From an uncultured Candidatus Saccharibacteria bacterium (GTDB taxonomy: Bacteria; Patescibacteriota; Minisyncoccia; Phycocordibacterales; UBA9973), in NCBI GenBank assembly GCA_964626965.1, contig CAZVHB010000001.1:1818-65817 (forward strand): a stretch of DNA of 64,000 bases, given 5' to 3'. The notes below the pieces were generated by a model. It ran no database searches. It was given only the letters and a program-made list of their open reading frames with translations, and was not told the DNA's origin. Position 1 is the first letter of the stretch. Each line of letters begins with the position of its first letter. The position numbers and the translations under genes are program-made. Below, piece after piece: positions 68-64,000 of the stretch.

Positions 68-183
68 TGTCATTCCGGATGAGGTGAATTGCGAAGCAAG
101 AGAGTATACCCTGGGGTACTTGATCCGGAATCTAGGACTATTCATTTCAAAACTCTGGATTCCGGATCGAGTCCGGAATGACA
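68..183. repeat. Palindromic two-hairpin repeat element (MITE/REP-like), copy A (116 bp with an internal ~37-bp insertion)
   Basis: TGTCATTCCGGA...TCCGGAATGACA terminal inverted repeats. Each arm is itself a hairpin (attccgga-N5-tccggaat). Same family as 2998-3074, 52041-52117 and 63621-63696. Confidence 0.8.
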
Positions 184-2997: not shown

Positions 2998-3074
2998 TGT
3001 CATACCGGACTTGATCCGGTATCCAGGATTATATATTGCACAGGTCTGGATTCCGGATCAAGTCCGGAATGACA
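2998..3074. repeat. Palindromic two-hairpin repeat element, copy B (77 bp)
   Basis: tgtcataccggacttgatccggtatccagga...ctggattccggatcaagtccggaatgaca, sitting in a convergent intergenic region. Confidence 0.8.
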
Positions 3075-3830: not shown

Positions 3831-4781
3831 ATGAAAAAGATAATTCTTTTGGCGATAATCGCCTCGACCATTTTTTCTTTACCAACGTTTGCTCAGCAAA
3901 CGTACATCGCAACTGATGTAAACGGTAAGCGGATTGATTCTGTAATTTATTACAGCTTAGAATCAGCGCAAGCTGCGGCTAATGCGTATGACTTACGTCA
4001 AAAACAACAATTAACACAAACGTTCACGGCGAAAGACGAGAACGGAAATGTAATTGGAGTGTATGCTTCTCAGCTAGAGGCACAAAATGCTACTAACGCA
4101 GATTACATGAGGAGGCATCCAGCTCCTGCACAAGGTAACACAAATCAACAGCCTGCTGAAGATCCATATCTTACTCGAAAAAAAGCTCTTGATTTACAAA
4201 AGGATCAAGAAACAGTTAAAGCTTTGAAGTTGCAAAACGCTAATTCCAAAATCACTATTTTAAACAATGGTATTACTACTGTTGGAAATGGTGTGGGGAC
4301 TGGTGTTTACATTGGTCAACAGCTTGGTCTGATTGGAAATGGTGGTGGACGAGCACAGTTCAATCGCTGTCGCTATTGCAATGTTACCTATGTTGGCACT
4401 CAGCATGTATGTAATCAAAGTGGTGTTGGTGGTGTAATGCCTCCTAACAGTGGTTACAATGGTAGTTATTGCCAAGGGTGTCGCCAGACTTATTATGGCG
4501 GTAATCATTCTTGTGGTACTACTGGTTTCGGCCAGCAAACACAAGGTTGCTTTTGTACTTATTATCAAGGGCAAGGATATGTTCCTAACCAATATGGTAC
4601 GGGTACATGGTGTACTTGGAGAATGAATAGTAATGGCTCCGGGTATGGTTGGTTTCCATCAACCCAACAAGGTGGTTGTGGTAATCAATATGGTGACGGG
4701 ATGTTTCATACACCAATCATCAATCGCTTTGATAATGGAGGACCTGTTCCAGGTGCTCAATATGGTGTTCGCATTTATTAA
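3831..4781 (+). CDS. Secreted Cys/Gly/Tyr-rich protein (signal peptide ...TFAQQ)
   Basis: N-terminal signal peptide. C-terminal half has 16 Cys in CxxC/CxC-like spacing and G/Y/N-rich low complexity. Confidence 0.7.
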   Translation: MKKIILLAIIASTIFSLPTFAQQTYIATDVNGKRIDSVIYYSLESAQAAANAYDLRQKQQLTQTFTAKDENGNVIGVYASQLEAQNATNADYMRRHPAPAQGNTNQQPAEDPYLTRKKALDLQKDQETVKALKLQNANSKITILNNGITTVGNGVGTGVYIGQQLGLIGNGGGRAQFNRCRYCNVTYVGTQHVCNQSGVGGVMPPNSGYNGSYCQGCRQTYYGGNHSCGTTGFGQQTQGCFCTYYQGQGYVPNQYGTGTWCTWRMNSNGSGYGWFPSTQQGGCGNQYGDGMFHTPIINRFDNGGPVPGAQYGVRIY

Positions 4782-8989: not shown

Positions 8990-9025
8990 CACAAAAAACC
9001 GGAATTGCCTCCGGTTTTTTGTTTG
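8990..9025 (+). terminator. Rho-independent terminator
   Basis: aaccggaattgcctccggtt followed by ttttttg. Confidence 0.75.
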
Positions 9026-9062
9026 TCTATAAGTTTATTTGGAAAGCTGATACAATGAGCAT

Positions 9063-11459
9063 ATGCAGAAATCACCCTACACCGAAACCTACATTCTCCT
9101 CGATGCACATGCGATTATTCACCGTGCGTACCATGCGATTCCTGACTTTACGACAAAAAGTGGTCAGCCGACAGGAGCTCTCTTTGGACTCATGAGTATG
9201 CTCATTCGCATTATGACCGAGATCAAACCAGACTATATTATTGCATGCTATGATCTACCCGATAAAACATTTCGTCATATTGCCTACGATGCATACAAAG
9301 GCACTCGCGCAAAGACTGATGATATTCTTGTCGAGCAACTCATCAAATCTCGCAGTATCTTTGAACGGTGTAATATCCCTATTTACGATGCAAAAGGATA
9401 TGAAGCAGACGACGTACTCGGCACGCTCGCTGATATCTTGAAGAAAAATAAGAAAAATAAAGTGATCATTGCGTCAGGTGATATGGATACGATGCAGTTG
9501 ATTGATAGTGACCAAGTTGTTGTGTATACACTCAAGAAGGGGATCACTGATACTATTTTTTATGATGAAGAAGCTGTGGTAGAGCGGTATGGATTTTCGC
9601 CTTCTTCGATTCCAGACTATAAAGGATTACGTGGCGATACATCAGATAATATTATCGGTATCAAAGGTATTGGTGAAAAGACTGCAACAATTCTCATTCA
9701 GAAATACGGTACGATAGAACAGATGTATGTTGCGCTTAAAAAAGACGAAGCAAAATTTAAAAAAGACACAGGTCTCACGGACAGACTTGTGGGGCTTATT
9801 CGTGATAATGAAGAAGAAGCACTTTTTTCAAAAGAGCTCGCGACCATACAACGAGATTTACCAATTAATCTTACGCCTTCTGTTCTTCATCATACTATCT
9901 TTAATAAAGATGACGTGATTGCGCTCTGTGAAGAACTTGAATTCAAAAGCCTCATTCCACGTATCTCAAATTTGTATACGAATAATACAGAAACAATTTC
10001 AAACAAGAAGACAGTTTCAAAAGAGGATACAAGTGAAGTGGTCCCAATAGTAGAGGTAGATCCAAAGTATCTTCTTGCTGTATCACTCCTTGATTCAGAG
10101 AAAATCAAACCAACAGCGGAGGATATTTTGGCCTATAGTAACCAAGGTGATTTGGGTGAAGCATATGCAACTATAGAGAAAGAAATAGTAAAAAATAATC
10201 TCGAGTATGTGTGGAAGGAGATTGAAATACCTCTCTATGATATTGTCCAAGAAATGTCAGCTACTGGTATTACGATTGATATTCCATATTTTAAAAAAAT
10301 GAGTGAAAAACTCCACAGTGAACTCGACACATTAGAAAAAAGAATTTGGCAACTTGCTGGACAAGAGTTCAATATTAACTCACCAAAACAAATGGGAGAA
10401 ATATTATTTACAGTGCTCAATTTAGGTGAAGGGCAGAAGAAAATCAAAAAAACTGCAGGTGGGGCTATTACGACAAAAGAATCCGAGCTTGAAAAGTTGC
10501 GTGATGCTCATCCTATTATCTCGTATATCCTCGAATACCGAGAGATTCAGAAGCTTGTTTCAACATATATTGATAGTATTCCACTCTTAGTTGGTGCTGA
10601 TGGACGAATCCACTCTACTTTCAATCAACTTGGTGCGGCAACTGGACGTTTTTCTTCAAACGACCCAAACCTTCAGAATATTCCTATCAAAACAGAACGG
10701 GGAAGACTTATTCGTGGTGGTTTTGTTGCAAAGTCAGGTTATGTATTTTTGGGCTTTGACTATTCTCAGATTGAGCTACGTGTTGGCGCGCTTCTTTCAC
10801 AAGATCCGGACATGCTTGATACATTCATTCATGGTAAAGATATTCATACAACTGTGGCGAAAAAAGTTTTTAATGTTGAAGAGTCTGGTGTCACTCCTGA
10901 CATGCGTCGCAAAGCAAAAGTGATTAATTTTGGAATTATGTATGGTATGGGTGCGACAGCGCTCTCAGAAAATTTGGGTGTCCCACGAAAAGAAGCCCAG
11001 CTTTTTCTAGAAGAATATAAAAAACAATTTCCTGGGCTCAATATGTACCTTGAATCTATCGTAGAATTTGCAAAGACACACAAATATACGGAAACATTTT
11101 TTGGAAGAAAGAGAAATTTTTCAAAAATAAATTCAGTCATTCCATTTATTCGTGCAATGTATGAACGTATGGCAGTCAATGCACCAGTGCAGGGGACAGC
11201 TGCAGATATTATTAAGCTTGCGATGTTGCATTCACGTAAAATACTTGCGGAACACAAACTTGATATACATGCACAGCTCGTTTTGCAAGTGCATGATGAA
11301 ATTATTTTTGAAGTTGAAGAAAAATATCAACAAGAAGTAGCGGAACTCATCGAAAAGACGATGGAAAATATCATCCCGAAAAATATGAAAAAAGATCTTA
11401 TTTTTCCACCTTTTTCAACTTCTGTTGCGGTCGGGAAAACCTGGGCAGATTTGAAGTAA
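9063..11459 (+). CDS. polA: DNA polymerase I (5'-3' exonuclease plus polymerase; the 3'-5' exonuclease domain looks reduced)
   Basis: Motif A DYSQIELR, motif B RRKAKVINFGIMYG, motif C QVHDEIIFE. TACAAT-N6-ATG lies at the start. Confidence 0.9.
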   Translation: MQKSPYTETYILLDAHAIIHRAYHAIPDFTTKSGQPTGALFGLMSMLIRIMTEIKPDYIIACYDLPDKTFRHIAYDAYKGTRAKTDDILVEQLIKSRSIFERCNIPIYDAKGYEADDVLGTLADILKKNKKNKVIIASGDMDTMQLIDSDQVVVYTLKKGITDTIFYDEEAVVERYGFSPSSIPDYKGLRGDTSDNIIGIKGIGEKTATILIQKYGTIEQMYVALKKDEAKFKKDTGLTDRLVGLIRDNEEEALFSKELATIQRDLPINLTPSVLHHTIFNKDDVIALCEELEFKSLIPRISNLYTNNTETISNKKTVSKEDTSEVVPIVEVDPKYLLAVSLLDSEKIKPTAEDILAYSNQGDLGEAYATIEKEIVKNNLEYVWKEIEIPLYDIVQEMSATGITIDIPYFKKMSEKLHSELDTLEKRIWQLAGQEFNINSPKQMGEILFTVLNLGEGQKKIKKTAGGAITTKESELEKLRDAHPIISYILEYREIQKLVSTYIDSIPLLVGADGRIHSTFNQLGAATGRFSSNDPNLQNIPIKTERGRLIRGGFVAKSGYVFLGFDYSQIELRVGALLSQDPDMLDTFIHGKDIHTTVAKKVFNVEESGVTPDMRRKAKVINFGIMYGMGATALSENLGVPRKEAQLFLEEYKKQFPGLNMYLESIVEFAKTHKYTETFFGRKRNFSKINSVIPFIRAMYERMAVNAPVQGTAADIIKLAMLHSRKILAEHKLDIHAQLVLQVHDEIIFEVEEKYQQEVAELIEKTMENIIPKNMKKDLIFPPFSTSVAVGKTWADLK

Positions 11460-11486: not shown

Positions 11487-11602
11487 GATATACCCCGACA
11501 CCAATCCTTATTTTTTTACCCTAGATTGAGGTTTTTATAAGTAAGGTGGTATGAATGTTATTTCGTTGTAAGTTGTAAAAAGATTGGTGTGGGGGTATAA
11601 TA
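11487..11602. repeat. Inverted pair of the GATTGGTGTSGGGGTATA motif (20 bp, 2 mismatches) flanking ~76 bp
   Basis: 11487-11506 gatataccccgacaccaatc versus 11583-11602 gattggtgtgggggtataat. The right arm precedes the 11625 gene; the left arm has no cognate gene. Confidence 0.6.
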
Positions 11603-13013: not shown

Positions 13014-13487
13014 ATGAAAAAATCTCAAAAAGGTTTTACACTCATCGAACTTTTGATTGTTATCGCAATCATCGGTGTACTCGCAGCTGTTCTTATTCCT
13101 AACTTGCTCGCAGCTCGTAACAAAGGAGTAGACGCAGCTATTAAAGCTAACCTTGCTGCTACAAAATCTCAAGCAACATTGTTCTACGAAACATCACAAG
13201 TATTTACTGGTGTGTGTGCAACTGGATCTTCAACAGCTATCGGTGATATGGTTCTCAGTGCAGCACAAAAACTCTCTGGAGCTAACACTGTAACTGCTGC
13301 TACATGGGCGTACTCTTCAACTGGTGCGGCTAACTCTGCTGTGTGTCATGATAACGCTACAGCATGGGCAGCGATGGTATCTCTCAAGAACCCATCAACT
13401 ACATCTGGTGGATGGTGTGTTGACTCAACTGGTGCTACAAAAGAAACAGCTACTGCACTCGCAGCTGGTATTGCTGTTTGTCCATAA
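13014..13487 (+). CDS. Type IV pilin (major pilin paralog 1)
   Basis: Class III signal MKKSQKG/FTLIELLIVIAIIGVLAAV with a C-terminal Cys-Cys disulfide loop. Confidence 0.9.
   Translation: MKKSQKGFTLIELLIVIAIIGVLAAVLIPNLLAARNKGVDAAIKANLAATKSQATLFYETSQVFTGVCATGSSTAIGDMVLSAAQKLSGANTVTAATWAYSSTGAANSAVCHDNATAWAAMVSLKNPSTTSGGWCVDSTGATKETATALAAGIAVCP
13028..13158 (+). repeat. 131-bp segment identical to 13640-13770 (conserved 5' part of two pilin genes)
   Basis: Exact nucleotide identity across the prepilin N-terminal helix coding region. Confidence 0.9.
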
Positions 13488-13505
13488 GGAATTTATATTC
13501 TTTAC

Positions 13506-13537
13506 AAAAAAAACACCCAATCGGGTGTTTTTTTGTG
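13506..13537 (+). terminator. Rho-independent terminator
   Basis: aaaaaaaacaccc-aatc-gggtgttttttt. Confidence 0.8.
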
Positions 13538-13582
13538 TAAAAGGAGCTTGTGCTTTAAAAAAGCAAGATGTATACTGTTCTT

Positions 13583-14098
13583 ATGAAGATTTATATAAAA
13601 CATAAAGAAAAATTCGCGAGGGAAAGTATTATAAATAGTAAAGGTTTTACACTCATCGAACTTTTGATTGTTATCGCAATCATCGGTGTACTCGCAGCTG
13701 TTCTTATTCCTAACTTGCTCGCAGCTCGTAACAAAGGAGTAGACGCAGCTATTAAAGCTAACCTTGCTGGTATACGTTCAGAAGATATTTTATATTATGA
13801 AAATAACAACTCTTCTTTTTTAAACATCTGTACTACGTCAGTTACCGGTCTCGCTGACCAACTTGATAGTGCCGCAAAAAAGCTCTCTGGTTCTAATACT
13901 GTTGGTGGTTCAGCTCAAGCTTTTACCTACTCTGCAACTGGTGGTACTGGTTCTGCTGTGTGTCATGACTCTGCTACGGGTTGGGCTGCGGTTGTGTCGC
14001 TCAAGAACCCATCAACTGCATCTAGTGGATGGTGTATTGATTCCGTGGGTGTTTCAAAAGAAGTTACTACACTCGGAGCTAATATACGTGCTTGTTAA
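13583..14098 (+). CDS. Type IV pilin (paralog 2)
   Basis: Same N-terminus as paralog 1, variable middle, conserved C-terminal CHD...W..VSLKNPST...GWC. TGTATACT-N6-ATG at 13583. Confidence 0.85.
   Translation: MKIYIKHKEKFARESIINSKGFTLIELLIVIAIIGVLAAVLIPNLLAARNKGVDAAIKANLAGIRSEDILYYENNNSSFLNICTTSVTGLADQLDSAAKKLSGSNTVGGSAQAFTYSATGGTGSAVCHDSATGWAAVVSLKNPSTASSGWCIDSVGVSKEVTTLGANIRAC
13640..13770 (+). repeat. Second copy of the 131-bp identical pilin 5' segment
   Basis: Identical to 13028-13158. Confidence 0.9.
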
Positions 14099-14109
14099 TC
14101 AATTATTTT

Positions 14110-14156
14110 CCTCACTACAAAAAAACACCCGATTGGGTGTTTTTTTGTAGTGAGGA
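14110..14156 (+). terminator. Rho-independent terminator (extended stem)
   Basis: cctcactacaaaaaaacacccgattgggtgtttttttgtagtgagg. The core hairpin is the reverse complement of the one at 13506. Confidence 0.8.
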
Positions 14157-14223
14157 AACACGCTATGTGAATATCTTCTGTTTACTTCTTTCTTTTTTAA
14201 AAGTATCTGGGTATACTATACGT

Positions 14224-14700
14224 ATGAAAAAAATATATAAATCTCAAAAAGGTTTTACACTCATCGAACTTTTGATTGTTATTGCAATTATTAGTGTTAT
14301 TGCCTCTGTGCTTATTCCAAACGTCATGGCTGCGCGAGACAAAGGAACAACCGCTGCGCAAAGAGCCGAAGTAAAAACAGTACAAACAGAAGCAGTTGTT
14401 TTATGGGAAGCTAATAGTGGTAATCTTACCACTGTGTGTACTAACAGTACTGGGGCTCCTCGTACAGCACTCTTGAGCGCCCTGAAAAAGGGCTATCCAA
14501 ATGGTCAAATTGGAATTTTGGCGAACTCCATAGCATCGAGTTCTGGTAACGGTGCTGGTGTGTGCCACAGTACGGCATCTGCATACGGGGCAGAAATACC
14601 TCTTAAGTCTGGTGGATTTTTGTGTATGGATTCTACTGGTTTAGTGGTAGAATCTCTGACGACAAAAATTGGAACAGTGAATGATACATCTTGTTTATAA
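14224..14700 (+). CDS. Type IV pilin (paralog 3, divergent)
   Basis: MKKIYKSQKG/FTLIELLIVIAIISVIASV. GGTATACT-N6-ATG. Confidence 0.85.
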   Translation: MKKIYKSQKGFTLIELLIVIAIISVIASVLIPNVMAARDKGTTAAQRAEVKTVQTEAVVLWEANSGNLTTVCTNSTGAPRTALLSALKKGYPNGQIGILANSIASSSGNGAGVCHSTASAYGAEIPLKSGGFLCMDSTGLVVESLTTKIGTVNDTSCL

Positions 14701-14730
14701 TTTGTTTCTAAAATACAAAGGTTATATATT

Positions 14731-14768
14731 ACAAACCCAAGCAAACTAGTTTGCTTGGGTTTGTTTGT
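14731..14768 (+). terminator. Rho-independent terminator
   Basis: aaacccaagcaaactagtttgcttgggttt followed by gtttg. Confidence 0.75.
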
Positions 14769-14795
14769 TCCTTGCTATAGTAGTATACTGTGTAC

Positions 14796-15623
14796 ATGTT
14801 TGAATTATATGGAATCTTCGTTTTTATTTTAGGAATGATTATCGGTTCATTTTTAAATGTTGTCATTTATCGGTTCAATACAGGACGGGGACTTGGCGGA
14901 CGATCATTTTGTTTTACCTGTAGACGGACACTGTCTTGGCACGAACTTGTACCGATCGTCAGCTTTGTTAATCAGAAAGGGCGCTGTAAAGGTTGTGCTT
15001 CAAAAATCTCTTGGCAGTATCCACTCGTTGAAGCTATCACCGGCCTGGTATTTGTTTCGCTCTTTATAAAATTTTTTCCAACACTTGATCTGACGCTTTC
15101 CGGTATTTGGCCAAGTTTGTTTTACCTTATTTTCTACACGTATATATTTTGCCTCCTTATTGTCATTTCAGTGTATGACTATCATCATCAGATTATTCCC
15201 AATAAACTTGTTTGGCTATTTAACATCCTCGCATTTTTAAGCCTCTTTTTGTTTGTGGGTGTTTCAGGTAGTGCTGTATACAGTATTCATCTTCCAACAC
15301 TTATGTCTATTGTGGCGGGGCCACTTATTGCGTTACCGTTTTTCTTTCTGTGGATGATTACCAAAGGGCGGGGTATGGGATTTGGTGACGTAAAGCTCGC
15401 ACTCGGTATTGGCTGGCTTCTTGGACTTTTTGCAGGACTTGCGACAGTTATTGTCTCTTTTTGGATTGGAGGATTTTGTGCGCTGATTGTACTCTTTCTT
15501 AAGAAAAATAAATATACACTCAAGAGTCATATTGCATTCGGTCCATTTCTTTGTATCGCTACGTTCCTTGTTTTTTTATTTAATGTTACAATTATTGATA
15601 TATTGCTACGGTTTCACTTTTAA
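14796..15623 (+). CDS. pilD: Prepilin peptidase (A24 family)
   Basis: GSFLNVVIYR, a CxxC...CxxC zinc knuckle and the catalytic GFGDVKL. TATACT-N6-ATG at 14796 (the ORF track starts at a GTG at 14790). Confidence 0.9.
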   Translation: MFELYGIFVFILGMIIGSFLNVVIYRFNTGRGLGGRSFCFTCRRTLSWHELVPIVSFVNQKGRCKGCASKISWQYPLVEAITGLVFVSLFIKFFPTLDLTLSGIWPSLFYLIFYTYIFCLLIVISVYDYHHQIIPNKLVWLFNILAFLSLFLFVGVSGSAVYSIHLPTLMSIVAGPLIALPFFFLWMITKGRGMGFGDVKLALGIGWLLGLFAGLATVIVSFWIGGFCALIVLFLKKNKYTLKSHIAFGPFLCIATFLVFLFNVTIIDILLRFHF

Positions 15624-15631
15624 TACACTCA

Positions 15632-16372
15632 ATGGAAAATAGATTATCACAATTACAAAATAGATTAGCTTGTAAACAGAGCGTTAAAAAAAGCGGAGCT
15701 TTTTTTAACGCTGGTTTTACAGTTATCGAAATGGTGACAGTGATTGCTATTTTTACAATACTTCTCGGAATCACTATGGCCAACTTTGACCTTTTTAAAA
15801 AGACGACTGATTTTAATCTCTCCGCTCAAGAGGTAGCATTTTTTATCAAGAGTCAACAACAAAATGCTATGGCTGGAAGATTTCCAGAAATTGATCCGTA
15901 TGTAAAAAATTATCCACCCACATCATGGCGCCCTTCATATGGACTCTATTTTAGCGTAGCCAACTCAGATAGAGTGTTACAGTTTTATGATAGTGATAAT
16001 GACTTCCTCATGACTGCGCCGTCAGGAAACACTTCGTGCGCAAATGACCCAGAGTATGAATGTATGAAAGAGATTATTTTTGACAAGATGACACTTGTGA
16101 GTATCTGTGATATGGATCCAAGTGGGTGTATTTCACGTAGTTCAGTTTCTGTTGTGTTTAAGCGTCCATTTCCTGATGCTCGTATTAATGCAGACTATAC
16201 TCCTTTTGATGTGTATGATTGTGTTGTAAATATGATATGTAATGCTACTAGTGTACCTACCCCAGTAGCAAACACTATAGAATTACGTTTTGAAACACCT
16301 GGTGTTACTGGTGCCAATATTGTCTCTATAAATCCACTTGGTGTTTTGACTGTTAGAAGAAGTAGTATATAA
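15632..16372 (+). CDS. Minor pilin / pseudopilin (FimT/GspH-like)
   Basis: Prepilin signal ...NAG/FTVIEMVTVIAIFTILLGI. Confidence 0.7.
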   Translation: MENRLSQLQNRLACKQSVKKSGAFFNAGFTVIEMVTVIAIFTILLGITMANFDLFKKTTDFNLSAQEVAFFIKSQQQNAMAGRFPEIDPYVKNYPPTSWRPSYGLYFSVANSDRVLQFYDSDNDFLMTAPSGNTSCANDPEYECMKEIIFDKMTLVSICDMDPSGCISRSSVSVVFKRPFPDARINADYTPFDVYDCVVNMICNATSVPTPVANTIELRFETPGVTGANIVSINPLGVLTVRRSSI

Positions 16373-16375
16373 CAC

Positions 16376-17065
16376 ATGATACACAAAATAGAGAATACAA
16401 AAAAATATAATCAAAATTTCATGGCCGGGTTCACACTCATTGAGCTTCTGGTTGCAACGTCGATATTTTTGATGACGATCACCGTTGGTATTACATCACT
16501 TCTTATGATGCATCGGACACATCACATTACTCAGTATAAAAAAGAGCAGTTGGATGCACTTCACGCGGTAATGGAAGACATGGTGCGAAATATTCGTGTG
16601 GGAACAAAAATCAGATGTGATATCACTGGTGCGTATAGTGGTACTGTGCTTGATCCTTTCACTGGTGCAACTGAAATAAGAACCCCTCTGTCGTGTTTTA
16701 ATAATTACACCACAGATCAACCTCAGAGTAATTCAATTGCTTTTGAAGGGATTGATGGGGATCCCTTAGATGATTTGGATCAAATTTCATATTATATTGA
16801 GTATGATGCTATTCTTGATAAGCGTGTCATATATAAGGCACACGATGTCGATTTTTATAATGATTTCACTAAATCAATCCGTGTCTCTCCTGATTCTGTA
16901 GATATCGATTTTGATAAATCTGGCTTCACTGTCATTCATGCTGAAGATTCTGACTTAAAACAACCACTCGTGTTGATTCGTTTGGTTGGTACGGTGACGT
17001 ACCAAAACGATAGTACTCCATTTTCTCTTCAAACAGCCGTGATGCAAAGAAATCCAAAACTATAA
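16376..17065 (+). CDS. Minor pilin (PilW/GspJ-like)
   Basis: ...FMAG/FTLIELLVATSIFLM. Confidence 0.7.
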   Translation: MIHKIENTKKYNQNFMAGFTLIELLVATSIFLMTITVGITSLLMMHRTHHITQYKKEQLDALHAVMEDMVRNIRVGTKIRCDITGAYSGTVLDPFTGATEIRTPLSCFNNYTTDQPQSNSIAFEGIDGDPLDDLDQISYYIEYDAILDKRVIYKAHDVDFYNDFTKSIRVSPDSVDIDFDKSGFTVIHAEDSDLKQPLVLIRLVGTVTYQNDSTPFSLQTAVMQRNPKL

Positions 17066-17068
17066 TAT

Positions 17069-17680
17069 ATGCAATATACACATATTACAAAAAAATACTT
17101 GCCCAGCACTAAATTAATGTTCTCTAAATATAGAAAATTTAGTACTGGATTCACCCTAGTGGAAACTCTCGTAGGTATTTTTATCTTTCTTTTAGCGTAT
17201 ATGGCACTTGCAAGTGTTAATGGTAGTTCTCTTCAAGATATTAGTATCACAAGCAGAAAACTTACTGCGGAGTATCTTGCGGAAGAGGGGATTGAATACG
17301 TAAAGTATTTTCAGAAATCATACGATAATGATCCGACACCAAAGGCATCATTTCTTGGTGTGACTGATCCAATGCCTTGTACGAGCTCACCTTCTGCTGT
17401 TGGGTGTGATTTTTATCTTAATCCTGGATCTCAAGATGTTACTGTGGATACTTACACAGGGCCTTTGAACCAATACCCGTATGGTTTTCTTGTACCAAGT
17501 TCTGTGGGTAGTGGTTATTCGGGTTTGACTACTGTCTCTGGTTATGAAAGGCATATTTATATAGATGATATTACTCAAAATGCGCTAGAGAGTCAGACAG
17601 TAAAAGTCACCTCCGAAGTAACCTATCTTCCAAGCCAGCCACCTGTGGTGGTTACCGCAATAATTCATTTCAATTTTTAA
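17069..17680 (+). CDS. Minor pilin (PilV/GspI-like)
   Basis: ...FSTG/FTLVETLVGIFIFLLAY. Confidence 0.7.
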   Translation: MQYTHITKKYLPSTKLMFSKYRKFSTGFTLVETLVGIFIFLLAYMALASVNGSSLQDISITSRKLTAEYLAEEGIEYVKYFQKSYDNDPTPKASFLGVTDPMPCTSSPSAVGCDFYLNPGSQDVTVDTYTGPLNQYPYGFLVPSSVGSGYSGLTTVSGYERHIYIDDITQNALESQTVKVTSEVTYLPSQPPVVVTAIIHFNF

Positions 17681-17681
17681 T

Positions 17682-18380
17682 ATGACACACCTTTCCTATA
17701 CAAAAAAACAAGACGGATTTATCATACTTTTCTCTGTACTCATCACAGCGATTATTCTCTCTATCACTCTCGGTGTTGCTAATGTTGCATTTCGGCAGAG
17801 AATCTTTACTCAACAAGTGACTCAGTCTACGAAAGCATTCTATGCAGCAGAAACAGCACTTGAGTGCCTCGTGGCGCTCGACGCACGGGGGGATTTTGGT
17901 CAAGATCCGTACCCGACAAGTATGCCGACAGATGTGAATGTGTATTGTAATGGTATTACAGCACCAGCAACACCAAATGTTTCAAACTCTCCTATTGTTG
18001 GGACTGGACCTTACTGTGCAGATGAAGATCCTATGACATCCCCGACATATTGTCCTGGAGGAGGTCTTGGAGTAGGAAGTACTGTGTATGAATTTGATCC
18101 GGTCAACTTCTCTCCAAGTACTTTTATAGAGGTGTCTGATACGTCAGGTGCACTTACTGGTTGTGCTCGTGCCAGAGTAACTAAATATTATGATACCGGA
18201 TTGAGTAATTTAACTGAAAGATATAAACACGTAATTCAAGTATGGGGGTATCAAGTAGACTGTGCCACTCTTGAGGCTCAGTTGACTTTTGCCCTCTCGA
18301 ATCCTTCTAGCCCTCTTGGATTTGGCCCGACAAACAACATTGTAGAGCGAAGTCTTACATACACCTACGAATCAGAATAG
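17682..18380 (+). CDS. PilX-like minor pilin
   Basis: QDG/FIILFSVLITAIIL... and FYAAETALE resemble the PilX N-terminal domain. Confidence 0.55.
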   Translation: MTHLSYTKKQDGFIILFSVLITAIILSITLGVANVAFRQRIFTQQVTQSTKAFYAAETALECLVALDARGDFGQDPYPTSMPTDVNVYCNGITAPATPNVSNSPIVGTGPYCADEDPMTSPTYCPGGGLGVGSTVYEFDPVNFSPSTFIEVSDTSGALTGCARARVTKYYDTGLSNLTERYKHVIQVWGYQVDCATLEAQLTFALSNPSSPLGFGPTNNIVERSLTYTYESE

Positions 18381-20450: not shown

Positions 20451-20459
20451 AAAAGCATA

Positions 20460-20475
20460 GGTGTGGGGGTATACT
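20460..20475 (+). promoter_or_regulatory. GGTGTGGGGGTATACT motif, 6 nt upstream of the ATG at 20482
   Basis: Identical 16-mer to the one at recG. Confidence 0.5.
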
Positions 20476-39239: not shown

Positions 39240-39317
39240 ACAGTAGGGCGCCTATGGCGCCCTACTGTATTTCTATAACCTGTAACCTTTCACCTGTACC
39301 CTAGTTCGTGCTATAGT
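39240..39317 (+). promoter_or_regulatory. Terminator-promoter cassette 1: GC-clamp hairpin, then 4 tandem heptads (ataacct gtaacct ttcacct gtaccct), 9 bp, TATAGT
   Basis: acagtagggcgcc-tat-ggcgccctactgt; heptads 39275-39302; TATAGT 39312-39317; ATG at 39330. Confidence 0.6.
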
Positions 39318-39329
39318 GTATGTACTATT

Positions 39330-44401: not shown

Positions 44402-44530
44402 ATGGCAGCTAAAAAAGCAAAAAAGAAAGTAGCTAAGAAAGCAGTTAAGAAAACTGTAAAAAAAGTAGCTAAGAAAGCAGTTAAGAAAACTGTAAAGAAA
44501 GCAACAAAGAAGGTAGCGAAGAAAAGATAG
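44402..44530 (+). CDS. 42-aa Lys/Ala-rich basic protein (histone H1-like / Hc-like nucleoid protein). It is not in the ORF track because it is shorter than 60 aa.
   Basis: MAAKKAKKKVAKKAVKKTVKKVAKKAVKKTVKKATKKVAKKR. It contains an internal 36-nt tandem duplication and has its own terminator. The 82-aa minus-strand ORF 44321-44569 is its antisense shadow. Confidence 0.6.
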   Translation: MAAKKAKKKVAKKAVKKTVKKVAKKAVKKTVKKATKKVAKKR

Positions 44531-52040: not shown

Positions 52041-52117
52041 TGTCATTCCGGACTTGATCCGGAATCTAGGACTACCTATACTATACATCTGGATCCTGAA
52101 TCGAGTTCAGGATGACA
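52041..52117. repeat. Palindromic two-hairpin repeat element, copy C (77 bp), sitting inside the transporter operon spacer
   Basis: The left arm is canonical. The right arm carries compensatory changes (atcctgaa-tcgag-ttcaggat) that preserve the hairpin. Confidence 0.8.
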
Positions 52118-57182: not shown

Positions 57183-57276
57183 CAGACGAGGTGTCCGAAG
57201 GACACCTCGTCTGTTGTCTATTCTGTATTTTCTGTACCCTACAACCTACCACCTAAACCCTCGCTCATGCTATAGT
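57183..57276 (+). promoter_or_regulatory. Terminator-promoter cassette 2: GC-clamp hairpin, then heptads (gtaccct acaacct accacct aaaccct), 9 bp, TATAGT, N6, ATG
   Basis: acagacgaggtgtcc-gaa-ggacacctcgtctgt; heptads 57234-57261; TATAGT 57271-57276; ATG at 57283. Confidence 0.6.
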
Positions 57277-57282
57277 GTCTGC

Positions 57283-58626
57283 ATGAATTCCGACAACACA
57301 CTCTTTTTCCAAACCCACCCTGAACTGAAAAATATTCTAGAAGCACACGGAAGTAAGACAATTATGGAGTATATTACTTTTGTGAATGACTTTATTTCAA
57401 AGGGTGATTTTTCTTTTTTTGACCAACGACAGGAAGATTTTTTTGCAGTGTATCAAGAAACACTGAAATCGATTTTTGACGAGCGTGTCATTCGGGAGTC
57501 TATTGAAACCCTTAAAAAAAATAGACTTATCTCTACTGCTGATCATCAAGGTGTCATCTCACATCCATTTTTTCTCAGTAGTACCTATGCTCGTACTCTC
57601 TATGCTCAAAAAGTAGGTCAGGGGAGTGTTGTGACTTTTCCGTGTGCAAGTATCTCTCTTTCAAATTCATCTTTTCCTCGAGGGCTTATTGTTCATGATC
57701 GTGATGATGTTGAGAAAAAAATATATTTTAAATCTCTCGTCCATAAACTCAATCCGGTCTTTTGTGAAGAAAAAATAGAGAGAGACGGTGTACAGAAAAT
57801 GTATGATACTCTCTCTTCAATTACTCTTGAGAAAGAAATGCGTAAAAAAATACTTTCTGTATTTAAAGATATCTTTTTTTCAGAAAAATTTCTAAGCTTG
57901 GAAAGTTTCGATGAACAGTGTACGTATGGGAGTTTAATGCTTTGGAAGTATGTTCCTACTTTCGAAAATATAGATCTCATCTATGTATCTCAAGAAAAAG
58001 TAGTAACTGATTTGATTATTAAAAAACATTTGGGTGGCGATACGCTGATCCACTCTCTTTTGTTCGATGAAACGTATCATGCACTTTTTGTAAGATATTT
58101 TGATGGAATTACTGGGGCATTTGATATACAGGCGAAGAAAGGTACGCAACTGTTTTGGGGTGTTCGCGCGCATGAACGTGTCGCACTTTTTATTCAAGAA
58201 AATAAGCTCATTGATAGTAATGGAGATATATTTCTAATAATAGAGACAGAAGAAATAAAAAAAGCATTACAAGAGAGGCGAATCATGCCGAGCATGCCAC
58301 TCGTTTTTATTGTGCTCTCTTTTTACTATGGTTTTGTCTGTGGTGGGGGATTTAGTCAGGTGGATTATCTGGGGTCTATGAAAAATGCCTGGATGAATAT
58401 GCTTCGTGATGTTGGAGAAAATAGTGAAACTGATCAAGTAGAAAAAATACCGACTAATATTTTGCTTGGTGACTATGCAACGATTCAGTCTGGAGATACT
58501 AAAAAATTGCGTCATGCTTTTCATTTAATCATGAAAGATTCAGCACATACTGAAGATATTAAAAAAATCTTCTTACAGAGAACTATATCAGAAGACATGA
58601 AAGATGGATTTACTCTCTATTTATAA
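57283..58626 (+). CDS. Hypothetical protein (448 aa)
   Basis: Long ORF driven by the heptad-type promoter. No recognisable domain. Confidence 0.5.
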   Translation: MNSDNTLFFQTHPELKNILEAHGSKTIMEYITFVNDFISKGDFSFFDQRQEDFFAVYQETLKSIFDERVIRESIETLKKNRLISTADHQGVISHPFFLSSTYARTLYAQKVGQGSVVTFPCASISLSNSSFPRGLIVHDRDDVEKKIYFKSLVHKLNPVFCEEKIERDGVQKMYDTLSSITLEKEMRKKILSVFKDIFFSEKFLSLESFDEQCTYGSLMLWKYVPTFENIDLIYVSQEKVVTDLIIKKHLGGDTLIHSLLFDETYHALFVRYFDGITGAFDIQAKKGTQLFWGVRAHERVALFIQENKLIDSNGDIFLIIETEEIKKALQERRIMPSMPLVFIVLSFYYGFVCGGGFSQVDYLGSMKNAWMNMLRDVGENSETDQVEKIPTNILLGDYATIQSGDTKKLRHAFHLIMKDSAHTEDIKKIFLQRTISEDMKDGFTLYL

Positions 58627-60529: not shown

Positions 60530-60616
60530 AACAGCGGGACGCCCTTCGGGCGCCCCGCTGTTTGATTTTTCCTATAACCTAATACCTATCAACTATAACC
60601 TAGCGCGTGCTATAGT
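60530..60616 (+). promoter_or_regulatory. Terminator-promoter cassette 3: GC-clamp hairpin, then heptads (ataacct aatacct atcaact ataacct), 9 bp, TATAGT, N6, ATG
   Basis: acagcgggacgccc-ttc-gggcgccccgctgt; heptads 60574-60601; TATAGT 60611-60616; ATG at 60623. Confidence 0.6.
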
Positions 60617-60622
60617 TTCTCT

Positions 60623-61402
60623 ATGCACACAGCACACAGTGTTAAAAAAATAGGATTCTATGATTCTGGATTAGGAGGACTCTTTTTAATGCACTATGTA
60701 CAAACAGTATTTCCGGGATACGAATATGTCTTTTTGGGGGATGAGAAAAATCTACCCTATGGTCCACGTCCTGTCGAAGAACTATTTACCTTTGCTCGTA
60801 CTGCTATCGATTTTTTATATGATAAAGAAAATTGCGATATTGTCGTTATTGCGTGCAATACGCTCTCTGCGACTGTGTATGAAACTTTGGCGCTCGAGTA
60901 CAAGGTAAAGCATCCTGACCGATTACTTATCGATGTCATTACACCGACTATCGACGCACTTGAGAAAGATACACACTTCAGTGTCTTTGGAACACTACGC
61001 ACTATTGAAAGTCATCTCTATCGAGATGGCATTACTAAAAATTTTCCTGACGCGAAAGTCGATGAGTACGTCGCGACTAATCTTGCATTGTTGATAGAAG
61101 AAAAAAGAGATACGACCGAATCAATCAGTTCTTTTAAAGATCAGGTTTATCCTCATCCTCATACGATGATCTTGAGTTGTACTCATTATGGAATAGTGGA
61201 AGATGTTTTTCGAAAGGTATATCCAGAGTGTTCCGAGATTATTTCCCAGCACTCAATCATAACTGATCTCTTTCGTTTCATGCTCCATCCAGGAGGTGAA
61301 GAGGTATCTGTGCGGATATTGGTGACAAAAGATAATCCAGTGCTTACTGCATATAGTAAAGAATGGTTTCCTTCGGTAGGGCCTGAAGTGATAAATCTCT
61401 AA
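60623..61402 (+). CDS. murI: Glutamate racemase
   Basis: IGFYDSGLGGL; VIACNTLSA; SCTHYG. Confidence 0.9.
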   Translation: MHTAHSVKKIGFYDSGLGGLFLMHYVQTVFPGYEYVFLGDEKNLPYGPRPVEELFTFARTAIDFLYDKENCDIVVIACNTLSATVYETLALEYKVKHPDRLLIDVITPTIDALEKDTHFSVFGTLRTIESHLYRDGITKNFPDAKVDEYVATNLALLIEEKRDTTESISSFKDQVYPHPHTMILSCTHYGIVEDVFRKVYPECSEIISQHSIITDLFRFMLHPGGEEVSVRILVTKDNPVLTAYSKEWFPSVGPEVINL

Positions 61403-61417
61403 ACACACTCTGCGCTT

Positions 61418-62002
61418 GTGTGGTATGATATCCAAGTAATGAAACCTGTTATTCCACCACATGCAAAAAAAGTCTTTGAAGGGATTATTTTTGATATTCA
61501 TCAGTGGCAACAAGAAATGTTTGACGGTACTACTGCGACCTTTGAACTCGCCAGTAGACCAAGTGTTGTCGTAACACTCCCTGTGATGGGTGATAAAATC
61601 TTGGTGGTTAAGGAAGAACAGCCGGGACGTCCACCGTATATTTCTGCACCAGCTGGATTTTCTGAGAAACAAGATATTGATGCACTCGCAACTGGAAAAC
61701 GAGAACTACGGGAAGAAACAGGCCTCACGAGTGACGACTGGGAACTTTTTGATATATATGAACTCTATCCGCGGATGAGTGTCACAGACGTAGTCTATAT
61801 TGCTCGTGATTGTAAAAAGACTCATGAGAAGACTCTCGATCGTGGAGAGCGACCTCTTGAAGATTTATGGCTGACGCTCGATGAATTTATTGATTTAGTT
61901 GATCGACCTGATTTTGCGAGTTTGTTTATGAAACATCATCTTGTTCGTGCAAAGTATGATCCTGAGTACAGAGAAGTTTTGAGGAAGAAAATTTTTGGTT
62001 AG
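61418..62002 (+). CDS. Nudix hydrolase (ADP-ribose pyrophosphatase-like)
   Basis: Nudix box AGFSEKQDIDALATGKRELREETGL. Confidence 0.75.
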   Translation: MWYDIQVMKPVIPPHAKKVFEGIIFDIHQWQQEMFDGTTATFELASRPSVVVTLPVMGDKILVVKEEQPGRPPYISAPAGFSEKQDIDALATGKRELREETGLTSDDWELFDIYELYPRMSVTDVVYIARDCKKTHEKTLDRGERPLEDLWLTLDEFIDLVDRPDFASLFMKHHLVRAKYDPEYREVLRKKIFG

Positions 62003-62003
62003 T

Positions 62004-62318
62004 ATGAAAAAAACTACAGCAAAATCAGATTTGTATGAGTTACCAAATCTCGGTCCACGTTCCATCGAACGTTTGGAAAAAATCGGTGTGACTTCGATAA
62101 AACAATTACAAAAGCATGGACCAGAAAAAGTCTATGACATGCTCTGCACTCATTACAAAACTCACATGCATATGGCGTTTCTGTACGTCCTCCGCTCTGC
62201 GTACTCGTATGCGAACGGTAAAATTGACCGAGATGGCGCATTACGCTGGTGGATGTTTCGTTCAGTGAAAGATAAAGACTTGGTTTTGCAGTATCAAAAG
62301 AAGTTTTGTAAAAAATAA
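62004..62318 (+). CDS. TfoX C-terminal domain-like (HhH) protein
   Basis: LYELPNLGPRSIERLEKIGVTSIKQLQKHGPEKVY matches the TfoX_C helix-hairpin-helix pattern. Confidence 0.45.
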   Translation: MKKTTAKSDLYELPNLGPRSIERLEKIGVTSIKQLQKHGPEKVYDMLCTHYKTHMHMAFLYVLRSAYSYANGKIDRDGALRWWMFRSVKDKDLVLQYQKKFCKK

Positions 62319-62342
62319 CACACAATTGGTGCGGACATACTG

Positions 62343-62825
62343 TTGTGGTATTATGGAGGTGAACCTAAAACCCCTCAATACATGTCACATAAAGTATCAC
62401 CCTATACTTCAGTAGAGCTCCATACTTCCTCTGTTGTTATCCCATTTTTTATTGATAGTGACGAATACTTCCTTTTTTGGGAAGGATCACACCAGCTCAT
62501 CGAAACAGCTGATGATGGCTTTATTCGTTATTTTCACTATTACGGTTTTTGTCTTGTTGAGCATCGAAGTCTTGAGCTTCTTGAAAAAATTCATTTTGAA
62601 TTAACAGAAGAAAAGTTGATCGAACATGGATTACCTCCGTATGTGAGTATCGTGCTCCCTTCACAGTGTGAATACAGTTATCCAAGTCCCGCTGATGACA
62701 GACGTCAGCGAAGACGGTATCCTGGTATTTTTCGTTCTCCAGCTGGGAGGACAGAAGGCGTTGTATTTTTTGTCGATGATTGGGATGGCTATCGTGCGTT
62801 TATTGTAAAGAAAATAGTAGAGTAA
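62343..62825 (+). CDS. Hypothetical protein
   Basis: ORF ending at a terminator. No recognisable domain. Confidence 0.45.
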   Translation: MWYYGGEPKTPQYMSHKVSPYTSVELHTSSVVIPFFIDSDEYFLFWEGSHQLIETADDGFIRYFHYYGFCLVEHRSLELLEKIHFELTEEKLIEHGLPPYVSIVLPSQCEYSYPSPADDRRQRRRYPGIFRSPAGRTEGVVFFVDDWDGYRAFIVKKIVE

Positions 62826-62829
62826 CTTA

Positions 62830-62870
62830 TTCCATAACCTGTATGTTGATACAGGTTATGGTTTTTTTAT
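62830..62870 (+). terminator. Rho-independent terminator
   Basis: ccataacctgtat-gttga-tacaggttatgg followed by ttttttta. Confidence 0.85.
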
Positions 62871-62909
62871 TTCTTTATAATTTGGAATTTATAATTTATA
62901 ATTGTTTGT

Positions 62910-63599
62910 ATGGCTCTAGTTAAAACAAAAAAAGAAATAGAAAACATACAAACTGCGTGTCAGATTACCGACGAGATTTTTAAAGAGGTGATTGTGTATG
63001 TGAAAAAAAATCGAGCGTGTACTGAGATTGAATTACAAAAATATATTTTACAACTCATAAAAAACAGAAATCTTCGCCCAAGTTTTCCGCCGATTGTGAC
63101 TTCGGGTTTCCGAGCAGGGAACGACATTCACCCAAAACCGACTGATAAAAAACTTGCCGGATTTACTATTATTGATCTCGGTGTTCGGTATAACGGATTT
63201 TGTTCTGATATGACTCGTACTATCTATGTAGGTGGACCAACAGAAAAAGAAAAAGAACTGTATCAAAAAATACTTGATGTGCAGTTGCTCGGTATCAAGC
63301 TTTCTCAGTCTGATGTGCGTTGTAGTGATATTGATGCGTCTGTGCGTTCATCACTTGATTCGCTTAAGAAATATTTTATTCATACCCTCGGACACGGTGT
63401 CGGACGAAAAATTCACGAAGCACCGATTATCTATGAAAAACGTACTAAGCCAGTTTTGAAAGATGCTATGGTGATTACTATTGAACCAGGTATCTATATC
63501 AAAAACAAGCTCGGAATAAGGATAGAAGATACGATTGTGGTCCAAGGTAAGAAACCGCTCATTTTGACTAAAACAACTAAAAAATTAATTTCTCTATAA
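62910..63599 (+). CDS. M24-family metallopeptidase (Xaa-Pro aminopeptidase / methionine aminopeptidase fold), catalytic domain only
   Basis: DLGVRYNGFCSDMTRT; HTLGHGVGRKIHE; MVITIEPGIY...GIRIEDTIVV. Confidence 0.8.
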   Translation: MALVKTKKEIENIQTACQITDEIFKEVIVYVKKNRACTEIELQKYILQLIKNRNLRPSFPPIVTSGFRAGNDIHPKPTDKKLAGFTIIDLGVRYNGFCSDMTRTIYVGGPTEKEKELYQKILDVQLLGIKLSQSDVRCSDIDASVRSSLDSLKKYFIHTLGHGVGRKIHEAPIIYEKRTKPVLKDAMVITIEPGIYIKNKLGIRIEDTIVVQGKKPLILTKTTKKLISL

Positions 63600-63620
63600 T
63601 ACGCACAACCTCACTTGTTG

Positions 63621-63696
63621 TGTCATTCCGGACTTGATCCGGAATCTAGAGTTTTGGAATGATCCATCCTGGATTCCGGATCAAGTCCGGAATGAC
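63621..63696. repeat. Palindromic two-hairpin repeat element, copy D (76 bp)
   Basis: tgtcattccggacttgatccggaatctaga...ctggattccggatcaagtccggaatgaca. Confidence 0.8.
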
Positions 63697-63772
63697 AATG
63701 CGGGCACATAACCCTTTCACAAAATATCGTATTTGTTATACTGTAATTGTATTAGTTTAATTATTACATTTC

Positions 63773-64000
63773 ATGAATTCATCATTTTCTATCAAAGAAG
63801 CATTTTCCTACGGTTGGGAGACATTTAAAAAACAATGGAAGTCTTTATTACCGTATTTTGCTGTACTTATTATTATACAAGTTGTATTCTCTTATCTTGG
63901 AGGAGAAAAAAGTCCAGTTGGTCTAACAGGGGCTATGGTCATAAATCTCCTTGGGACAGTTGTCAGTATTTTCTTGTCTGCAAGTATGATTAAAACAATA
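63773..64000 (+). CDS. Hypothetical membrane protein, 5' fragment (runs off the end of the window)
   Basis: ATG at 63773; at least two predicted TM helices; open to the window edge. Confidence 0.35.
   Translation, partial: MNSSFSIKEAFSYGWETFKKQWKSLLPYFAVLIIIQVVFSYLGGEKSPVGLTGAMVINLLGTVVSIFLSASMIKTI

Follow-up and report, generated by a model that had tools for sequence, protein, structure and literature searches.

The window, i.e. the whole 64-kb stretch of DNA analysed here, stems from a member of the Patescibacteria (CPR), as its nearest named homologues belong to Pacebacteria, Paceibacterota and Parcubacteria. It encodes RecG, Pol I, LigA, a UvrD-PD-(D/E)XK helicase-nuclease and a RecO-like protein, as well as a type IV pilin cluster with a prepilin peptidase and a TfoX_C/Cdd1 protein. 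Dispersed in it are four repeats of ~77 bp, subsequently designated copies A to D, each of which is composed of two inverted arms (eight arms in total, arm consensus TGTCATTCCGGACTTGATCCGGAATCYAG). Copy A (68..183, + strand) is located downstream of recG, beside a terminator-like hairpin at 35-65. Copy B (2998..3074, + strand) lies between a convergent DUF192 gene and a 145-aa ORF, and copy C (52041..52117, + strand) separates the hlyD-like from the ftsX-like gene within one hlyD-like/ftsX-like/ABC operon. Copy D (63621..63697, - strand), which is inverted relative to copies A-C, is found between an M24 peptidase gene and a DUF975-like gene.

Copy A is a doublet of 116 nt, as established by reading its sequence, matching its right arm to the consensus and folding it. 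Its left arm (68-137) consists of TGTCATTCCGGA, followed by 39 additional nucleotides (80..118, + strand; TGAGGTGAATTGCGAAGCAAGAGAGTATACCCTGGGGTA) in the loop, as revealed by comparison with the other arms, and by CTTGATCCGGAATCTAGGA. A spacer (138-154) connects it to the right arm (155-183; CTGGATTCCGGATCGAGTCCGGAATGACA). The other three copies are doublets of 77 nt. In copy B, the stem of the left arm (2998-3026) is compensated (ATACCGGA...TCCGGTAT) and the right arm (3046-3074) is canonical. In copy C, the left arm (52041-52069) is canonical and the stem of the right arm (52089-52117) is changed and compensated at three positions (ATCCTGAA tcgag TTCAGGAT). Both arms of copy D (63621-63649 and 63669-63697) are canonical and 97% complementary to each other.

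When the window was searched with a 26-nt arm consensus (TGTCATTCCGGACTTGATCCGGAATC), six arms were retrieved at ≤3 mismatches, compared to 0.00 expected from 100 shuffles. This match does not extend to the left arm of copy A, which is interrupted, or to the right arm of copy C, whose stem is substituted. A repeat search recovered the family of four copies (D4) as well as the inverted repeats within copies B (I11) and D (I13). The elements are polar and read TTGTCAT...AATCYAGGA - spacer - TCTGGAT...ATGACAC. In copy D, the side bearing AGGA and the spacer motif CATT.CAAAACT, which is common to copy A, are on the opposite strand, and the reverse complement of copy D agrees with the spacer of copy A at 12 of 17 positions. 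The inter-arm spacers measure 17-19 nt and the units are single; neither solo arms nor arrays of the repeat are present in the window, all four copies being doublets. An earlier note on this DNA had described a dispersed two-hairpin palindromic repeat with four intergenic copies, and the sequence, the arm search, the local folds of the arms and the inverted repeats within the elements agree with this description, including the positions, except that copy D ends at 63697 rather than at 63696. The note had further placed an internal insertion of ~37 bp in copy A. Extra DNA is indeed present, but it comprises 39 nt and is located in the hairpin loop of the left arm, not in the central spacer.

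The insertion in copy A has a counterpart in the relative L145 (4660-4700, - strand), where 23/23 exact matches precede a hairpin whose changes are compensated (TACCCTGGGGTA vs TGCCCTGGGGCA). This stretch is part of an unannotated region of ~190 nt (L145 4590-4785, - strand) just downstream of tRNA-Ser(GGA), which exhibits a tRNA-like acceptor pairing (GGAAGAG/CTCTTCC), a stem GGGAGA/TCTCCC and an RNA fold with z = -2.5, and which matches no Rfam family. The DNA downstream of tRNA-Ser in the window is without such a region. The only assembly contig found for the organism of the window (L121, Logan SRR12712864_21137; 2.4 kb) ends in the right arm of copy B, at window position ~3046. Because this contig ends inside the arm, we conclude that the repeat breaks short-read assemblies; the doublets also create spurious ORFs, both of which are relevant for annotation.

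Further repeats were noticed in the window. In the type IV pilin cluster (13014-18380), three paralogous pilin genes that encode N-terminal methylation motifs are arranged in tandem, and a near-identical terminator-like hairpin is placed after each of them (repeat families D1, D6 and D10); after the pilin genes come the prepilin peptidase gene (14790-15623) and more pseudopilin-like ORFs. A second palindromic intergenic repeat with the core ACCCCCACACCTAT has five matches (2394-2418, 2493-2517, 11492-11505, 11583-11596 and 20457-20470) compared to 0.19 expected, and forms inverted pairs ~75-90 nt apart that overlap TATAAT-like boxes. Related repeats (AGGATAGGTGTTGGGG / CCCCCCGACACCTATC) at 9290-9460 of L160 flank a 75-aa YhbQ-like GIY-YIG gene (9018-9245), and this may represent a second pairing of a nuclease with a repeat, or a promoter motif. 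Three direct repeats of ~55 nt (family D8; 39270-39324, 57229-57283 and 60569-60623) are 76% identical, end with ...GTGCTATAGT upstream of genes and resemble a shared promoter/leader region. Family D9 likewise exhibits a recurring TGCTATAAT box. Finally, a tandem repeat with a 12-nt period (family D2, 44405-44524) encodes a lysine/alanine-rich AKKA/VKKT-like stretch, and the 82-aa ORF overlapping it has no Pfam match.

Compensated changes argue for the local hairpin as the conserved unit

As single-stranded DNA, an individual arm forms a stem of 8 bp closed by a 5-nt loop (-6.4 to -8.3 kcal/mol, DNA parameters). When the whole single strand was folded, one long hairpin was favoured over two local ones in copies B and D, which have near-identical arms, and two local hairpins were the minimum-energy fold of copy C. 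Compensated changes, double in the left arm of copy B and triple in the right arm of copy C, preserve the 8-bp local stem and disrupt the pairing between the arms. These two copies speak for the local hairpin as the unit that is conserved, and their compensated stems suggest that selection on the hairpin continues. A four-way junction or cloverleaf formed by the whole element was also considered as the selected structure, but was rejected because partner arms in other genomes form local pairs only.

All eight window arms read TGTCAT-hairpin-ATCYAG and have the 3' end ...AT-C-TAG or ...AT-C-CAG. In a search relying on the flanks only (YGTCAT-N13-26-ATCYRG), which involved no selection for a hairpin, the stem variant used as query elsewhere was left out. 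Six out of six Watson-Crick pairs were possible in 46 of the 74 arms defined in this way, compared to an expectation of 0.2 from shuffling, and 22 distinct stems were represented. Therefore, the conserved object is GTCAT followed by any local hairpin and ATCYRG.

Orthologous sites are empty in close relatives

The sites corresponding to copies A, B and C carry no element in the relatives compared. At site A, the terminator directly follows the recG stop codon in L160 and L161 (RecG 89% identical), and an element is likewise absent from L162 (85%) and from L163 and L164 (77%). At site B, no element is present downstream of DUF192 in L160, L162, L163 and L164, for which the same recG identities apply. 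At site C, the stop codon of the hlyD-like gene and the start of the permease gene are separated by merely 6 nt in L122 (permease 94% identical at the amino acid level), and stop and start overlap in L123-L125 (neighbouring protein 69-73%). Site D is different: an identical copy is present in L145 (M24 peptidase 79%), whereas L146 and L147 (78%) have an 85-nt intergenic region without the element. L145 and L160 derive from the same assembly, and therefore this relative possesses copy D, but neither A nor B. Arms of the window kind are absent from ~66 kb of L160-L164, and the copy load in relatives is far lower than in the window, amounting to one pair in 34.7 kb and to zero in 42.6, 22.2 and 9.8 kb. 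The high copy number that the earlier note had proposed for the whole genome is a prediction from the four copies in 64 kb. A GIY-YIG gene beside DUF192 in L160 was considered as a filled site B and rejected, as it belongs to a different, YhbQ-like subtype and has different flanking repeats.

Target-site duplications were detected neither at the junctions of the four copies nor in the comparison of filled with empty sites. The flanks of copies A, B, C and D are TAT/CCC, TGT/CCA, GAT/CCA and TTG/ATG, respectively, the filled sites contain ~15-20 extra non-conserved nucleotides beyond the 77-nt core, and no defined insertion target emerged from the comparison of filled with empty sites. The insertions are recent and site-independent. 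That the repeat is inserted DNA had been implied in the earlier note, and the empty sites A, B and C as well as the distribution of copy D agree with it; conservation at orthologous positions in all relatives, which it had named as an argument against mobility, was not seen.

The tract around copy D that is shared with L145 exhibits 91-100% identity, as opposed to 60-75% in the adjoining coding DNA, and copy D may have moved between lineages by recombination. Across a larger interval (window 60600-63900 vs L145 7000-11200), nucleotide identity forms a mosaic: it is ~60-68% at 60.6-61.5 kb, 81-92% at 61.5-62.2 kb, 26-57% at 62.3-62.9 kb, where an ORF is replaced or divergent, 65-76% over the greater part of the M24 gene and finally 91-100% around copy D. 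As judged from these identities, the mosaic suggests recombination tracts between lineages.

The arms share the oriented flanks of hairpins recognised by Ssn nucleases

The Neisseria Transformation Sequence (NTS; CGTCATTCCCGCGMAVGCGGGAATCYRG), which contains the older dRS3 repeat, is described in the main text of Chenal et al. (Nat Commun 2025, PMC11893778) as an oriented hairpin, which SsnA, a 94-aa single-domain GIY-YIG nuclease, binds and cuts exclusively in the form of ssDNA. According to the same text, cleavage is governed by GTC, the base triplet preceding the palindrome, and occurs a few nucleotides upstream, while binding depends most critically on the C right after the palindrome. RNA and dsDNA forms of NTS are not substrates, and the RNA form is not bound; recognition is sequence-specific as well as structure-specific (PMC11893778). 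Ssn-related motifs (SRMs) are reported there to flank ssnA homologues in many phyla, in the layout NTS-ssnA-NTS, and to follow the degenerate pattern HGTCWYN(0-2)YYVSBRHN(0-5)WNVSBRGN(0-2)RNCYNB, which was built by hand from 29 genomes (PMC11893778).

We compared the window arms with these features. The hexamer TGTCAT directly precedes the palindrome in 8/8 arms, corresponding to (C/T)GTCAT in SRMs, and a C followed by YRG is placed just 3' of the palindrome in all eight as well. The strict SRM pattern has 0 matches in the window: one substitution is required to fit the canonical arms, two are required for the left arm of copy B and more than three for the right arm of copy C. In comparison, the arms flanking ssn genes of Patescibacteria fit the pattern with no substitution. 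Judged by their sequence, the window repeats are TCCGGA-stem, doublet-form NTS/SRM hairpin repeats that are putatively tied to Ssn GIY-YIG nucleases. A literature search retrieved no follow-up work on SRM doublets.

The TCCGGA-stem variant occurs in many phyla

To assess distribution, one genome per GTDB species was scanned with the 22-mer CATTCCGGAYTNGATCCGGAAT, in which the flanks are unspecified. It was found in at least 120 loci from many phyla. The matches listed include Patescibacteria, Dehalococcoidia, Campylobacterota, Planctomycetota and Bacteroidota, and further Ignavibacteriota, Nitrospirota, Alpha- and Gammaproteobacteria (including Rickettsia and Sphingopyxis), Spirochaetota and others; Rickettsia and Rickettsiales genomes are represented by L022, L025, L035, L105 and L114. 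Among the 128 arms of the matches listed, the upstream flank reads Y at -3 in 115, G at -2 in 126 and T at -1 in 125 cases, and downstream of the 22-mer there is C at +1 in 127, Y at +2 in 126 and A at +3 in 91 cases. A perfect hairpin in reverse orientation, ending with ...ATGAC, follows 56 of these 128 arms at a distance of up to 200 nt, and 33 different stems occur among these partners. A scan of viral contigs yielded only 11 stretches, too few to be informative. The published SRM pattern misses a stem variant that is common, being present in well over 100 species of many phyla.

GIY-YIG cassettes and gene-less pairs occur together in other Patescibacteria

The loci chosen for closer inspection (~1.2 Mb) were screened for GIY-YIG genes and hairpin arms only. 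Three small GIY-YIG ORFs were detected (PF01541, E 1e-17 to 4e-11). In L112, a Parcubacteria locus, the layout is TGTCATCCCCGACTTGATCGGGGATCCAGGAGCCT-ATG...TAA-atgca-CTGGATTCCCGTTTCCACGGGAATGACA, and L092 is organised in the same manner. The arrangement of forward arm, ~95-aa GIY-YIG gene and reverse arm was found in L112, L092, L130, L134 (twice), L139 and L159, and in all Patescibacteria loci examined the gene bracketed by arms encoded a GIY-YIG protein. For the L112 protein, at least 8000 homologues were counted, which are 70-80% identical and belong to several Patescibacteria lineages. We inspected the contigs of four of them, with labels including Doudnabacteria, Taylorbacteria and Parcubacteria, and each gene was placed between a forward and a reverse arm; the Taylorbacteria arms differ from the Neisseria NTS consensus by one mismatch. 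The catalytic residues of the Patescibacteria GIY-YIG proteins are spaced Y-11-Y-47-E, as are Y6, Y17 and E64 of SsnA. Based on the PF01541 match, the catalytic spacing and the flanking arms, these ~95-aa proteins appear to be Ssn-like and are putative orthologues of Neisseria SsnA (CDD cd10448).

Pairs of arms without a gene occur on such contigs, too. L133 contains gene-less pairs of ~70 nt at 4115/4185, 8014/8084, 9909/9978 and 16295/16365. The pair at 5240/5308 of L139 has the left arm TGTCATTCCGGACTCGATCCGGAATCCAGA with the TCCGGA-stem, i.e. the type present in the window. In L159, a gene-less pair (463-536) and an ssn cassette (654-1020) are 120 nt apart and agree in the left as well as in the right arm. 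In the loci inspected, no ssn cassette was bordered by TCCGGA-stem arms at both ends. The AGGA after the left arm of the window elements is the positional counterpart of the ssn ribosome-binding site in L112. As cassettes and gene-less pairs occur on the same Patescibacteria contigs and have identical arms in L159, we regard the window elements as the gene-less form of the cassette.

The two ssn cassettes of the Taylorbacteria-like locus L134 (8464-8814 and 9647-10100) are 1.2 kb apart and reside in a type IV secretion-like cluster (PrgI, TraC-like, TraG P-loop, T4SS pilin), where a gene-less doublet adjoins the second cassette on its upstream side. Sister contigs contain the first cassette as well (L133 8727-9076), but without a gene call.

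No mobilising enzyme was detected in the window

Pfam scans of 60 window ORFs revealed no transposase, Y1/RAYT or GIY-YIG domain, the remaining ORF being the M24 peptidase, and a regular expression for the GIY-YIG motif was negative in the window. An HMM built from three Ssn-like proteins was run against the 683 stop-to-stop ORFs of the window and yielded a best E of 0.026, i.e. no ssn homologue. The absence of a transposase from the window, as claimed before, is thereby confirmed. The element is non-autonomous as far as the window is concerned, because nothing in it could mobilise it, which is again what had been proposed.

Discussion

We consider it likely that the four copies are gene-less, tail-to-tail SRM doublets, whose arms would represent cognate ssDNA sites of an Ssn nuclease, and that they entered their sites recently as MITE/REPIN-like counterparts of an ssn cassette. 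This explanation draws on the match in sequence and structure, the covariation within local hairpins, the relation of cassettes and doublets in other Patescibacteria and the presence/absence polymorphism. According to this model, the site at the left end (5'-TGTCAT / 8-bp stem, 5-nt loop / C-YAG-3') is read forward on the top strand and the second site, at the right end, forward on the bottom strand, with ~19 nt between the sites. By homology with the Neisseria NTS, the single arm would be the unit that matters. In the single-stranded state, i.e. during replication, repair or in DNA taken up by transformation, the arm would fold into its local hairpin and be bound by a cognate ~95-aa single-domain GIY-YIG Ssn nuclease, which would introduce a nick a few nucleotides 5' of GTC. 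Owing to the inversion of the arms, each of the two strands would offer one cleavable site. The doublet corresponds in termini and polarity to an SRM-ssn-SRM cassette minus the gene, a relationship reminiscent of that between a MITE and an IS or between a REPIN and its RAYT gene. Entry of the doublets into intergenic DNA is recent, and the route may include recombination with DNA of relatives.

The model presumes that a cognate Ssn is encoded by this genome and that Ssn would cut arms with the TCCGGA stem. Cleavage of this stem is not guaranteed, because SsnA is sequence-specific as well as structure-specific. Ssn cleaves its site in one orientation only, and is not known to join or transfer strands. 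The gene set of the window would fit DNA uptake and recombination, which in Neisseria form the context of Ssn activity.

A farther-reaching idea, which we put forward only tentatively, is that SRM-ssn-SRM cassettes (~0.35 kb) and gene-less doublets of ~70-77 bp may form a two-tier selfish system, whose only enzyme would be the ~95-aa GIY-YIG ssDNA nuclease. The empty doublets would then be non-autonomous copies or homing sites, and the system would move inside lineages as well as from one to another, the Patescibacteria among them, possibly through natural transformation and recombination. If this were true, it would rank among the smallest autonomous mobile units known. The insertion polymorphism of the doublets and the pairing of a doublet and a cassette with identical arms are compatible with such a system, but are no proof of it. 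Resemblance to insertion sequences was raised in the main text of the 2025 paper as a hypothesis only (PMC11893778).

Alternatively, the copies could be orphans or relics, i.e. SRM doublets of the same family that have no cognate Ssn and travel as inert passengers through recombination with relatives, being harmless in intergenic DNA. We deem this rather unlikely. In its favour, no ssn gene is present in the 64-kb window, the identity of at least 91% around copy D suggests transfer by recombination, and the main text of Chenal et al. states that 19% of the genomes with >200 SRMs are devoid of an SsnA homologue (PMC11893778). However, the density of four copies per 64 kb, three of them lineage-specific, argues for active spread within the lineage, the compensated stems of copies B and C suggest that the hairpin is still under selection, and Ssn-like genes are very common in the Patescibacteria.

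There is little probability that the copies are cis-regulatory RNA hairpins of the host, acting as terminators, attenuators or mRNA-stabilising elements. A U-tract or T run follows none of the eight hairpins on either strand, the copies are absent from the orthologous sites of close relatives, where the operon junction measures 6 nt or overlaps, and the motif occurs in unrelated contexts across many phyla. Nor does any copy match an Rfam family at the gathering score; at E ≤10, the single match was that of copy B to a microRNA precursor, which reached 28 bits compared to a cut-off of 200 and is attributed to chance. The inability of SsnA to bind the RNA form of NTS (main text of PMC11893778) points in the same direction. 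The copies do form strong RNA folds (-28 to -63 kcal/mol, z -3 to -12), and their location at the 3' ends of convergent genes (A and B) or between operon cistrons (C) would suit such a function, but RNA effects of the copies are likely side effects.

The earlier note had also proposed a REP-like nature with a RAYT, i.e. an IS200/IS605 TnpA-like tyrosine transposase, as the mobilising partner. A doublet of inverted hairpins is indeed the dispersed unit, and two inverted hairpin repeats with a short spacer in several intergenic copies would be expected for REPINs. Mobilisation by RAYT is nevertheless very improbable: the 60 window ORFs contain no Y1 transposase domain, the genes bracketed by arms in the other Patescibacteria loci examined invariably encode GIY-YIG proteins, and the arms carry NTS/SRM flanks starting with GTCAT rather than the tetranucleotide GTAG/GGAG, which is reportedly typical of REPs (attributed to Nunvar 2010 and Bertels & Rainey 2011). 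Hardly any weight remains for a classical MITE derived from a DDE-transposase IS with the same terminal inverted repeats, a MITE-like nature being the other reading given in the note, as the small size, the 29-nt terminal inverted repeats and the polymorphic insertion of several copies are accompanied neither by target-site duplications at the four copies nor by a transposase-bearing parent in the window, and as partner arms elsewhere differ in the stem and share the flanks, which fits recognition of a hairpin and not of a terminal inverted repeat. Nor did a transposase gene with these termini and a target-site duplication turn up in the ~1.2 Mb of loci screened for GIY-YIG genes and hairpin arms.

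The preferred reading, gene-less SRM doublets, extends the Ssn/NTS hairpin system, which was studied experimentally in Neisseria and Wolbachia, to the Patescibacteria. These bacteria are small-genome episymbionts thought to depend on DNA uptake. The empty orthologous sites reveal that gene-less doublets insert into intergenic DNA, even inside an operon, which bears on the question of how such repeats multiply. The main value of the present data lies in the host range and in the evidence for insertion of gene-less doublets.

Comparison with known systems

The system shares several traits with REPINs and RAYTs, namely a dispersed doublet of inverted hairpins, a single-copy enzyme gene that is itself flanked by the repeat and recognition of hairpins in ssDNA. 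It differs by its enzyme, a GIY-YIG nuclease instead of an HUH/Y1 transposase, and by its flank, GTCAT instead of GTAG/GGAG.

Similarity is also evident to the NIMEs of Neisseria, which are said to have been described by Parkhill in 2000 as well. NIMEs are built as dRS3-RS-dRS3, with dRS3 being ATTCCC-N8-GGGAAT and RS units of 50-150 bp, usually in arrays (Bentley 2007, PMC1797815). Common to both are intergenic pairs of inverted ATTCC...GGAAT hairpins around a short variable spacer and a connection to recombination tracts. However, the window arms (ATTCCGGA-N5-TCCGGAAT) do not conform to the dRS3 consensus, their spacer measures 17-19 nt rather than 50-150 nt, they occur as single units rather than in long arrays, and NIMEs are described as specific to Neisseria.

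The RPE palindromic repeats of Rickettsia and Wolbachia are longer and often located in frame within genes. A link to the present repeats is that the 22-mer of the window type occurs in Rickettsia and Rickettsiales genomes, and that Rickettsia and Wolbachia are among the genomes richest in SRMs according to the main text of Chenal et al. (PMC11893778).

The closest relatives are the NTS/SRM repeats themselves. The window arms share their oriented flanks (YGTCATTCC...GGAATCYRG, compared to CGTCATTCC-stem-loop-stem-GGAATCYRG in NTS/SRM), and like SRMs they are multi-copy, nearly always intergenic, spread over many phyla and contain a palindrome of 20-50 nt that can fold in ssDNA. In other Patescibacteria, though not in the window, arms in forward and reverse orientation bracket a gene for a single-domain GIY-YIG protein of ~94 aa. 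Differences concern the stem and loop (TCCGGA with a 5-nt loop vs CCCGCG with a 3-4-nt loop), the occurrence in the window as isolated gene-less doublets with no cognate ssn seen in 64 kb, and the host, since the RefSeq set of that work, judging by its main text, does not include the Patescibacteria (PMC11893778). The repeats described here are thus a known kind of repeat in a new host and in a new sequence variant, rather than a new type of element.
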